The notes below the pieces were generated by a model. That model was not told where the DNA came from, did no database searches, and saw nothing but the letters and a program-made list of their open reading frames with translations. Below are positions 39,383-40,330 of a stretch of 64,000 nucleotides of DNA, one piece after another; within the stretch, counting starts at the first letter, position 1; each line of letters begins with the position of its first letter. The position numbers and the translations under genes are program-made. This stretch comes from a phage: sequence record PX880102.1, one strand, 5' to 3'.

Positions 39383-39458
39383 TGGTCGAGGCAGTAGGGA
39401 TCGAACCTACGACCTAGGACTTAGAAGGTCCTTGCTCTTCCTTCTGAGCTATGCCCCG
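39383..39458 (-). tRNA. tRNA-Arg (anticodon UCU)
   Basis: Hand-folded cloverleaf; anticodon loop CUUCUAA; T-loop GGTTCGATC; encoded CCA. Confidence 0.85.
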
Positions 39459-39462
39459 TAAT

Positions 39463-39538
39463 TGGGGTGACCGATGGGAGTCGAACCCATGACTACGAGA
39501 ATCACAATCTCGAGTTCTACCAACTGAACTACGGCCAC
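39463..39538 (-). tRNA. tRNA-His (anticodon GUG)
   Basis: Hand-folded cloverleaf; anticodon loop UUGUGAU; discriminator C; CCA encoded; no G at -1. Confidence 0.75.
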
Positions 39539-39652
39539 ATTAATACCTACTCCAACAATCAAGATGTCTTCACACGAAATTAAGAGAAGAGTGATCAGTT
39601 CAACCCCTATAATCGCGTCAAGTAGATATTATTGTGACAGTTGTCACAAATT

Positions 39653-39727
39653 TGGCGGACGTGATAGGATTCGAACCTATAACCAATCGCTTAACAGGCG
39701 ATCGCTCTGCCATTGAGCTACACATCC
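39653..39727 (-). tRNA. tRNA-Asn (anticodon GUU)
   Basis: Hand-folded cloverleaf; anticodon stem ATCGC/GCGAT, loop CUGUUAA; CCA encoded. Confidence 0.8.
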
Positions 39728-39731
39728 AAAT

Positions 39732-39818
39732 TGGTGGGGAGTGATGGAGTCGAACCACCCGAGTCGCAATGACAATGGATTTACAGTCCACACCGCTACC
39801 TCTACGGGATAACTCCCC
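39732..39818 (-). tRNA. tRNA-Tyr (anticodon GUA), class II
   Basis: 87 nt; anticodon loop CUGUAAA; long variable arm; acceptor GGGGAGT/ACTCCCC; D-arm pairing not fully resolved by hand. Confidence 0.7.
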
Positions 39819-39831
39819 TTAATTCTTAATT

Positions 39832-39906
39832 TGGTGGCCCTGGGTGGAATTGAACCACCATCTGGCGATTATGAGTCGCTTGCTTGAACCTTCCAGCTAC
39901 AGGGCC
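39832..39906 (-). tRNA. tRNA-Ile (anticodon CAU, presumably lysidine-modified) or tRNA-Met
   Basis: Anticodon loop CUCAUAA; T4 tRNA-Ile is known to carry a CAU-derived anticodon; CCA encoded. Confidence 0.75.
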
Positions 39907-39907
39907 T

Positions 39908-39983
39908 TGGTGCTGATTGACGGAATCGAACCGCCGACCTTCTCATTACAAGTGAGTTGCTCTACCTACTGAGCTAAATCAGC
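39908..39983 (-). tRNA. tRNA-Thr (anticodon UGU)
   Basis: Anticodon loop CUUGUAA; T-loop GGTTCGATT; CCA encoded. Confidence 0.85.
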
Positions 39984-39988
39984 AAAAC

Positions 39989-40078
39989 TGGCGGAGGCGA
40001 TAGGATTTGAACCTATGAGTCGCCGGAGCGACTGCCGGTTTTCAAGACCGGTGCATTAAACCACTCTGCCACGCCTCC
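39989..40078 (-). tRNA. tRNA-Ser (anticodon UGA), class II
   Basis: 90 nt; anticodon loop CUUGAAA; long variable arm; 2-nt spacer to tRNA-Pro as in the T4 Pro-Ser dimeric precursor. Confidence 0.85.
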
Positions 40079-40080
40079 AG

Positions 40081-40154
40081 TCTCCATACAAGGATTTGAA
40101 CCTTGGACCTCCTGATCCCAAATCAGGCGCTCTACCAAACTGAGCTACACGGAG
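40081..40154 (-). tRNA. tRNA-Pro (anticodon UGG)
   Basis: Anticodon loop UUUGGGA; CCA not encoded (as recalled for T4 tRNA-Pro). Confidence 0.85.
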
Positions 40155-40164
40155 TAAATTAAAT

Positions 40165-40238
40165 TGGAGCGGATAATGAGAATCGAACTCACATCATCAG
40201 ATTGGAAGTCTGAGGTAATACCATTATACGATATCCGC
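40165..40238 (-). tRNA. tRNA-Gly (anticodon UCC)
   Basis: Anticodon loop CUUCCAA; acceptor GCGGATA/TATCCGC; CCA encoded. Confidence 0.85.
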
Positions 40239-40243
40239 AAATT

Positions 40244-40330
40244 TGGTGCGAGAAGTGGGACTCGAACCCACAAGGAAATCATTCCGCAGCATTTTAAGTG
40301 CTGTGCCTTTACCAATTTGACCATTCTCGC
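40244..40330 (-). tRNA. tRNA-Leu (anticodon UAA), class II
   Basis: 87 nt; anticodon loop CUUAAAA; long variable arm; CCA encoded. Confidence 0.85.

Follow-up and report, generated by a model that had tools for sequence, protein, structure and literature searches.

The stretch of phage DNA in record PX880102.1 (64 kb; referred to below as the window) carries a cluster of tRNA genes at 39383-40330. This segment is very probably the tRNA/stable-RNA transcription unit of a T2/wV7/slur-type Tequatrovirus, which differs from its T4 counterpart through cassette exchange by homing endonuclease genes. Gene content, tRNA identities, homology breakpoints, distribution among phages, helix covariation in a leader of tRNA-His, and codon statistics support this reading directly. 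Judged from sequence comparison, the repertoire is not new; it is that of the known T2/wV7-type Tequatrovirus cluster, annotated in dozens of GenBank genomes.

tRNA genes were called with ARAGORN and the Rfam tRNA model. ARAGORN, run on the whole window, found 10 tRNA genes, all on the minus strand and each with a cloverleaf. All 10 were above the Rfam gathering score, nine of them at 59-74 bits (E 1e-10 to 1e-14). The genes are transcribed in the order tRNA-Leu(UAA) (40244-40330; Rfam 59.3 bits), tRNA-Gly(UCC) (40165-40238), tRNA-Pro(UGG) (40080-40154), tRNA-Ser(UGA) (39989-40078), tRNA-Thr(UGU) (39908-39983), an Ile2-like tRNA with anticodon CAU (39832-39906), a phage-type tRNA-Tyr(GUA) with a long variable arm (39732-39818), tRNA-Asn(GUU) (39653-39727), tRNA-His(GUG) with C73 and T at position -1 (39463-39538), and tRNA-Arg(UCU), a T2-type allele with G3·U70 (39383-39458). 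The Leu, Gly, Pro and Ser genes showed 100% identity with those of T4, and tRNA-Thr showed 96%; as in T4, tRNA-Pro has no encoded CCA. The tRNA-Tyr gene scored only 30.2 bits against the Rfam cut-off of 29. We nevertheless regard this call as secure on comparative grounds, because the gene is nearly identical to tRNA-Tyr of T2 (86/87) and T6 (85/87), the latter having been detected on a northern blot (PMC13096335).

A preliminary description of the window had listed the same ten minus-strand tRNAs in the same order and had considered Tyr and His its weakest calls; the automated finders gave both the same identities. Its account of T4 as encoding eight tRNAs (Gln, Leu, Gly, Pro, Ser, Thr, Ile, Arg) agrees with the T4 map, so that relative to T4 the window gains Tyr, Asn and His and lacks Gln. 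No overlooked tRNA-Gln came to light in the 64-kb window by ARAGORN, Rfam or short-word BLAST of the T4 gene, the last of which returned chance 10-14-mers alone.

The T4 cluster (NC_000866, 70.9-72.5 kb) occupies the same position, between the e.8/rnaC/rnaD and trna.2-4/ipI/57B sides, and has the same strand layout and the same terminator. Blocks of homology to T4 were found on both flanks of the window cluster. No T4 homology was detected across 39017-39886 (870 bp), where T4 has Arg-segB-Ile, or across 40334-40949, the position of tRNA-Gln in T4. The 870-bp block contains an open reading frame (ORF) of 116 aa, the Arg and His genes, a spacer, the Asn and Tyr genes, and the CAU tRNA except its first 20 nt. 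The CAU tRNA is 61% identical to T4 tRNA-Ile, and tRNA-Arg(UCU) is essentially unalignable with, and not homologous to, T4 tRNA-Arg. A BLAST search of the window gave no segB match. T4 has Ile and Arg sequences of its own, together with Gln and segB, and lacks Tyr, Asn, His, the leader of tRNA-His, the 116-aa ORF and an HNH gene found in the window. In the preliminary description, Tyr, Asn and His had been placed as additions between the Ile and Arg genes of T4. Since the flanking CAU and Arg genes are unlike those of T4 and the block has no T4 counterpart, the additional genes were not inserted between conserved T4 genes; the entire 870-bp cassette differs.

The counterpart of this cassette was found in T2, where the order is Leu-Gly-Pro-Ser-[ORF]-CAU-Tyr-Asn-Arg-ORF. 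In the T2/T2L region (PMC2330249; GenBank AP018813), the CAU-Tyr-Asn-Arg block is likewise present, with a small ORF after it and without segB. Besides tRNA-Tyr, the window and T2 share the CAU tRNA (100% identity), tRNA-Asn (75/75) and tRNA-Arg (74/76). The window differs from T2 in three respects: its Asn and Arg genes are separated by the leader and tRNA-His, an HNH gene stands in place of tRNA-Gln, and tRNA-Thr, which T2 lost to another HNH-like ORF, is retained. In T2 that ORF (406-807 of the retrieved locus) is mis-annotated as 'tail sheath monomer', and a 13-nt stub of tRNA-Thr remains. The T2L arrangement (Met, Tyr, Asn, Arg, trna.1, trna.2) was described in 2008 by Brok-Volchanskaya et al. 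(PMC2330249). The window has its CAU ('Met'), Tyr, Asn and Arg genes and downstream ORF and no segB, but not the tRNA-Gln at the upstream end, where the HNH gene and a 9-nt stub are located.

The preferred SegB cleavage site was mapped within tRNA-Asn of T2L, and in T4 x T2L crosses the T2L block was replaced through segB homing in 99.6% of the progeny (PMC2330249). The tRNA-Asn of the window, being identical to that of T2, should hold the preferred SegB site, as predicted from sequence. Homing by SegB excludes the T2L block in crosses, and the T4 state is thus explained by a homing event, with the Tyr/Asn state as the common T2-type recipient allele and T4 as the derived state. Relatives of tRNA-Tyr were present in 1390 records of a collection of 50,697 phage records, which was used for all distribution counts, and reached 81-93% identity in other Tevenvirinae genera; such homologues agree with Tyr being old in this lineage. 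SegB homologues are statistically associated with tRNA genes (Chihara et al., PMC13096335). In T6, segB is located after tRNA-Tyr, and in Shigella phage CM8 a SegB-like gene (2319-2927 of the retrieved locus) lies at the tRNA-Pro position.

At the other end of the cluster, homology breakpoints indicate that tRNA-Gln was destroyed via replacement by a free-standing HNH endonuclease gene (40337-40945, minus strand; 609-bp ORF, 202 aa). In T4 and Aplg8, GTTAATAAT is followed by tRNA-Gln (73 nt), a single C and tRNA-Leu; in the window it is followed by TGGGAATTA, TATT, the HNH ORF from ATG to TAA, TATAGC and tRNA-Leu. Comparison with T4 and Aplg8 identified TGGGAATTA as a 9-nt 5' stub of tRNA-Gln (40950-40958, minus strand). 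The first 9 and last 2 nt of the gene thus remain as remnants, and nucleotides 10-71 were exchanged for ~616 bp. The preliminary description had not found tRNA-Gln; the gene was replaced, not overlooked. The HNH protein gave a full-length match to phrog_14736 'HNH endonuclease' (E 5e-124) and scored 17.3 bits against Pfam HNH, under the cut-off of 21.4; it may have homing activity. The locus is polymorphic among close relatives, with tRNA-Gln at the HNH site in Aplg8, PhiZZ6 and T4, and the HNH copies are near-identical. The HNH gene was present in 64 records, one copy each, at 95-99.7% identity, T4-type tRNA-Gln in 433 records, and segB in 183.

The closest relatives of the 2-kb region were slur03, slur08 and slur14 (Escherichia phages, Tequatrovirus; 98.9% identity), and ACG-C40, MLF4 and many others showed 95-96.5% identity. 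In the three slur phages, ACG-C40 and MLF4 (96-98.9% over 2 kb), the HNH gene, all ten tRNAs, the spacer and the ORF come in an identical order; these phages differ by point changes only, and their records label the CAU tRNA as Met and leave the spacer, rnaC and rnaD without annotation. The slur14 record carries the same ten tRNAs as annotated features (gt001-gt010), with 'HNH endonuclease' directly upstream of tRNA-Leu, and the repertoire is therefore already in the databases. The full window arrangement was covered at 100% in at least 20 rows among the matches listed, and the CAU-Tyr-Asn-leader-His-Arg block, at ≥80% coverage, occurred in 187 records; the collection also has a shorter version of the block that lacks His and the spacer. 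Over the whole cluster, His and its leader included, Enterobacteria phage Aplg8 (NC_054902) and the wV7/AR1 group showed 99.1% identity as far as the 5' end of tRNA-Leu; these phages keep tRNA-Gln, for a total of 11 tRNAs, and have no HNH gene. Possibly new items are only the conserved leader RNA of tRNA-His and the atypical identity features of the His and Arg tRNAs.

The CAU tRNA is labelled Met by ARAGORN and in GenBank, a label based on nothing but the anticodon. Its best match in E. coli was a tRNA-Ile gene in 5424 of 5426 genomes, and its identity was 78.9% to ileY (Ile, CAU), 63% to metT and 60% to the initiator. It has in common with ileY the acceptor start G1-G2-C3-C4-C5 with the pairs C4:G69 and C5:G68, and the anticodon arm GCGA-CUCAUAA-UCGC is identical in the two; tRNA-Met has U4:A69 and A5:U68 at the same positions. 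In work of 2005, Ikeuchi et al. reportedly recognized C4:G69 and C5:G68 as the TilS determinants that set tRNA-Ile2 apart from tRNA-Met. Initiator or elongator Met was rejected as an identity on the basis of the G1-C72 pair, the lack of a GGG/CCC anticodon stem, and the identity of only 60-63%. Comparison with the E. coli genes favours an Ile2-like tRNA as a better call than Met, and the Ile(CAU) assignment made earlier was upheld over that of the tools by the similarity to ileY and the C4:G69/C5:G68 pairs. C34 would carry lysidine and the tRNA would read AUA, a codon 4.9-fold commoner in the phage ORFs than in E. coli.

Codon usage was compared between 82 window ORFs (18,226 codons) and 42 annotated coding sequences (CDS) of E. 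coli K-12 (14,748 codons). The phage/E. coli ratio was 9.2 for AGA, 4.9 for AUA, 3.8 for UCA, 3.7 for GGA, 3.4 for ACA, 2.8 for UUA, 1.5 for CCA and 1.6 for CAA. The logic of A-ending codons holds for seven tRNAs: Leu UAA, Gly UCC, Pro UGG, Ser UGA, Thr UGU, Ile2 CAU and Arg UCU. Among amino acids, the ratio was 1.77 for Tyr, 1.69 for Lys, 1.62 for Asn and 0.65 for His. No other amino acids are as enriched in the phage ORFs as Tyr, Lys and Asn, so tRNA-Tyr and tRNA-Asn both fit a demand model. The earlier suggestion that the altered tRNA set changes codon supplementation was therefore sustained for Tyr and Asn; it failed for His, of which the phage uses less, and for Gln, whose tRNA was lost.

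Several observations weigh against the proposed reading of the segment. tRNA-Gln(UUG) was lost despite a 1.6-fold enrichment of CAA, which makes up 70% of the phage Gln codons; this implies that the cluster was moulded at that end by selfish spread of the HNH gene and not by tuning of translation. His usage at 0.65 of the E. coli level means that demand does not explain tRNA-His. Although the GUG anticodon and the C73 discriminator of this tRNA are those of canonical bacterial tRNA-His, the gene has no encoded G-1; T is present at -1 (39538-39539, minus strand), where E. coli hisR has G. G-1 with C73 is the major His identity element in bacteria and is used by E. coli HisRS (PMC9976931). Because the encoded G-1 is lacking, the efficiency of tRNA-His as a decoder is uncertain. 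Finally, the codon ratios are indicative, being drawn from a small sample of only 42 E. coli CDS and from mechanically called phage ORFs.

T at -1 was found in 12 of 12 T4-like tRNA-His sequences and in tRNA-His of mycobacteriophage MoMoMixon. The body of tRNA-His is 98.7% identical in Jiaodavirus and Moonvirus phages, as against ~82% for the leaders. A literature search on phage tRNA-His without G-1 returned nothing relevant. The tRNA-Arg(UCU) gene combines G3·U70 with A73, G2-C71 and G4-C69, which is the bacterial alanine acceptor-stem identity set (PMC9976931). The G3·U70 allele was present in 5 of 5 His-bearing clusters examined, and A3-U70 was found in T2 and PhiZZ6. Mischarging of this tRNA-Arg by AlaRS is conceivable from its acceptor stem. 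In CM8, a chimeric pseudo-tRNA with a Tyr 5' part and a His 3' end (~1962-2065 of the retrieved locus) lies in the gap annotated between 'Met' and Arg; it reflects recombination between tRNA genes across the common GGTTCGACTCC T-arm, with deletion of Asn and the leader.

The spacer between tRNA-Asn and tRNA-His is 114 nt in length (39539-39652) and contains a palindrome, as had been described. The palindrome, a perfect 8+8 inverted repeat (TTGTGACA/TGTCACAA), lies at the Asn-proximal end, with arms at 39632-39639 and 39642-39649 (minus strand). The rest (39539-39631, minus strand) is a putative structured 5' leader of tRNA-His, in which a basal helix, P1, is folded around two hairpins. P1 pairs 39620-39631 with 39541-39552 (12 bp) and stops 2 nt short of tRNA-His. 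The minimum free energy (MFE) of the spacer was -32.9 kcal/mol (z -3.37 relative to shuffled controls), and the fold consisted of the palindrome hairpin followed by P1 with the two hairpins inside.

The region 5' of tRNA-His was compared among 12 T4-like phages, 11 of which have a named genus, representing eight genera (Tequatro-, Jiaoda-, Karam-, Gelderland-, Roskilde-, Winkler-, Moon- and Gualtarvirus). Immediately 5' of tRNA-His, each of the 12 has an element with the borders AAUAUU.../...AAUAUU(G/A)AU; its interior ranges from ~40 to ~230 nt and is in some cases unrelated in sequence. The basal helix was present in every MFE fold. When the P1 arms were anchored on the conserved hexamers, 98.9% of cells paired, as compared with 48-60% in slid controls, and 3 of 11 pairs had changed on both sides in a compensatory manner. 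RNAalifold analysis of eight full leaders gave a three-way junction in which 7 of 26 pairs showed compensatory change; one of its helices forms a hairpin of 4 bp whose loop is UC(U/A)UGAU. Most genera have Gln upstream of the leader, Gualtarvirus has Ser, and the window has Asn. Since this neighbour varies, the leader is linked to His, not to the upstream gene. In PhiZZ6 and T2, Asn is joined directly to Arg and both His and the leader are absent; leader and His thus form a unit present in a subset of Tequatroviruses.

By BLAST, the spacer was found in 356 records, in 196 of them at ≥95% identity, and the matches fetched from beyond Tequatrovirus belonged to Karamvirus, Gelderlandvirus and Jiaodavirus. 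Only 1 of 45 among the matches listed overlaps an annotated CDS (a hypothetical protein); the others are unannotated at the spacer. The right arm of the palindrome (TGTCACA) is common to Karamvirus, Gelderlandvirus and Roskildevirus sequences, in which it forms part of the conserved element, and the left arm was found only in Tequatrovirus sequences, as a junction-specific feature. The extra genes and the spacer with its palindrome had together been taken as a mark of recent shuffling. For the spacer, the fold and its comparison suggest otherwise: over most of its length it resembles a conserved structured leader and not a scar, and the left arm alone is lineage-specific.

Other identities for the spacer were considered. 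Neither ARAGORN nor Rfam, searched to E 10, revealed a degenerate tRNA or a known RNA in 39539-39652, save one chance-level Rfam match at E 9.3. A consensus scan for promoters gave no minus-strand sigma-70-like site in the spacer, and across the region it found no more sites in all than in shuffled sequences. The loop of leader hairpin P3, UCUUGAU in the window and UCAUGAU elsewhere, was rejected as an anticodon, since it lacks both conservation as such and a U33. An exact 17-mer scan of IMG/VR for leader homologues gave six loci, of which five were without tRNAs and apparently due to chance. A literature search on small RNAs in T4-like tRNA clusters returned nothing relevant.

The leader may act as a processing module, or it may be a stable by-product RNA like rnaC and rnaD. 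Species 1 and 2 RNAs of T4 (rnaC and rnaD) are set free by tRNA processing. Like the leader, they are structured non-tRNA parts of a tRNA transcription unit; they have no sequence similarity to it, and the leader, unlike them, lies inside the tRNA array and is always joined to tRNA-His. By analogy, the leader might also be released by processing. A bolder proposal, which we put forward tentatively and consider rather improbable, is that the leader is an undescribed structured RNA, a three-way junction with a closing helix of at least 11 bp, tied to a tRNA-His without the encoded G-1 that is elsewhere obligatory; it would guide the 5' maturation or the use of this tRNA along a non-canonical route or would persist as a stable small RNA, and His together with Tyr and Asn would form a 'QUN-family' module directed against anticodon nucleases and not at codon usage. 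In Jiaodavirus and Karamvirus, other long inter-tRNA spacers also fold as modules closed by a basal helix: a His-Ser spacer of ~96 nt (427-522 of retrieved locus L022) and a Ser-Ile spacer of ~66 nt (608-673 of the same locus), with further cases in loci L024 and L016. Arrays of this kind may generally be built with stem-closed spacer modules. AS6 (286-400 of its locus) and Melville (289-400) have an extra structured insert of ~120 nt between tRNA-Gln and the His leader; at that position, FBB1 (99-330) carries a degenerate, tRNA-like piece whose T-arm is intact.

Downstream of tRNA-Arg, the 116-aa ORF (39016-39366, minus strand) lies between tRNA-Arg and rnaD. It matched phrog_3355 at E 1e-51 and gave no Pfam match; it is an annotated CDS in slur14, PhiZZ6 and T2 and is absent in T4. 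It is probably one of the trna ORFs of T2L, to judge from the note 'trna.2 protein' on its CM8 homologue. Next are homologues of rnaD (species 2 stable RNA; 38903-39016, minus strand; 97.4% identity with T4) and rnaC (species 1 stable RNA; 38757-38895, minus strand; 98.6%). A hairpin resembling an intrinsic terminator (38683-38706, minus strand) marks the end of the tRNA/stable-RNA unit, and the Aplg8 annotation has a terminator at the corresponding position.

The T4 tRNA cluster is made as polycistronic precursors that are processed by host RNases. The ten co-oriented tRNA genes of the window, followed by the small ORF, rnaD, rnaC and the terminator, would likewise give polycistronic precursors processed by host RNases. 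Seven of the tRNAs would serve A-ending codons that are 1.5-9 times commoner in the phage than in E. coli, and tRNA-Tyr and tRNA-Asn would supply two of the three most over-represented amino acids. A second role, suggested by published results on close homologues, would be to make good the loss of host tRNAs to defence nucleases, with tRNA-Tyr acting against Septu and retron-Eco7 and tRNA-Asn and tRNA-Thr against PARIS. Expression, processing and an anti-defence benefit are predictions for this phage. As to its history, T4 has Ile-segB-Arg where the window keeps CAU-Tyr-Asn-(leader-His)-Arg-ORF; the unit of structured leader and tRNA-His, common to other Tevenvirinae genera, stands between Asn and Arg in ~190 sequenced phages, and the HNH gene has overwritten tRNA-Gln in 64 of these, the window included.

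The history implied by the preliminary description, in which Tyr, Asn and His are recent insertions between the Ile and Arg genes of T4 that retuned codon supplementation and mark recent shuffling, is unlikely, and for Tyr and Asn it is largely refuted. The tRNA set does differ from that of T4, the phage makes heavy use of Tyr and Asn, the region is a mosaic with sharp homology breakpoints, and neither the HNH gene nor the His cassette is found outside particular lineages. However, the CAU and Arg tRNAs on either side are not those of T4, the Tyr/Asn block is a widespread T2-type state known since 2008 (PMC2330249), tRNA-Tyr has homologues in other genera, and SegB homing makes T4 the derived form. 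Retuning is further contradicted by the low His usage and the counter-adaptive loss of Gln, and most of the spacer does not look like a shuffling scar. Decay of some of the ten genes, which would leave a smaller working repertoire, is very unlikely. The Rfam score of tRNA-Tyr is just over the gathering score, T is present at -1 of tRNA-His and G3·U70 in tRNA-Arg, and T6 tRNA-Tyr was reported to be relatively unstable; however, the T6 homologue is expressed and functional (PMC13096335), tRNA-Tyr is kept in 1390 phage records, and all 10 genes form an ARAGORN cloverleaf. The greater conservation of tRNA-His than of its leaders across genera indicates purifying selection, and genuine decay looks otherwise, as in the Tyr/His chimera of CM8.

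A mainly anti-defence function of Tyr, Asn and His, as a module that replenishes or decoys host tRNAs cut by Septu, retron-Eco7, PARIS or E5-like toxins, is a possibility to be taken seriously, although we consider it less than probable. All three tRNAs have GUN anticodons and belong to the queuosine family, and colicin E5 cleaves exactly the Tyr, His, Asn and Asp tRNAs (PMC1669751, PMC1635277). Septu cuts tRNA-Tyr; raised expression of T6 tRNA-Tyr, the close homologue of the window gene, restores infection, and T4, which has no tRNA-Tyr, is unable to escape (PMC13096335). The tRNA-Tyr of T5 defeats retron-Eco7 (PMC11555353), and phage-type tRNA-Tyr is found across unrelated phage groups. The PARIS nuclease AriB cuts Lys, Thr(UGU) and Asn(GUU) tRNAs, with minor His(GUG) and Pro(UGG) products; host tRNA-Asn is cut at UAAUC|C, and a UAAU motif is associated with cleavage (PMC12409363). 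The anticodon arm of the window tRNA-Asn reads U36-A-A-G-C-G and has no UAAU motif, and usage leaves His unexplained. By analogy with these systems, the published data support a contribution of phage tRNAs to anti-defence. On the other hand, amino-acid demand explains Tyr and Asn equally well, the phage tRNAs retain the U33-G34-U35 recognized by E5 and hence would not be resistant, Septu also cuts the tRNA-Tyr of T6 (PMC13096335), and Asp, the fourth E5 target, is missing from the set.

We therefore retain the reading of the segment as a T2/wV7/slur-type unit remodelled by homing endonuclease genes. The repertoire itself adds little as a finding, being annotated in dozens of genomes and belonging to a T2-type cluster mapped in 2008. 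The cluster is a worked example of how homing endonuclease genes edit the tRNA set of a phage: an HNH gene for Gln here and an HNH-like ORF for Thr in T2, with a SegB-like gene for Pro in CM8 and segB for the Tyr/Asn block in T4 as further cases. Codon supplementation is unable to account for all members of the set. The leader RNA, the tRNA-His without G-1 and the alanine-type acceptor stem of tRNA-Arg could bear on the maturation and charging of phage tRNAs and on counter-defence.

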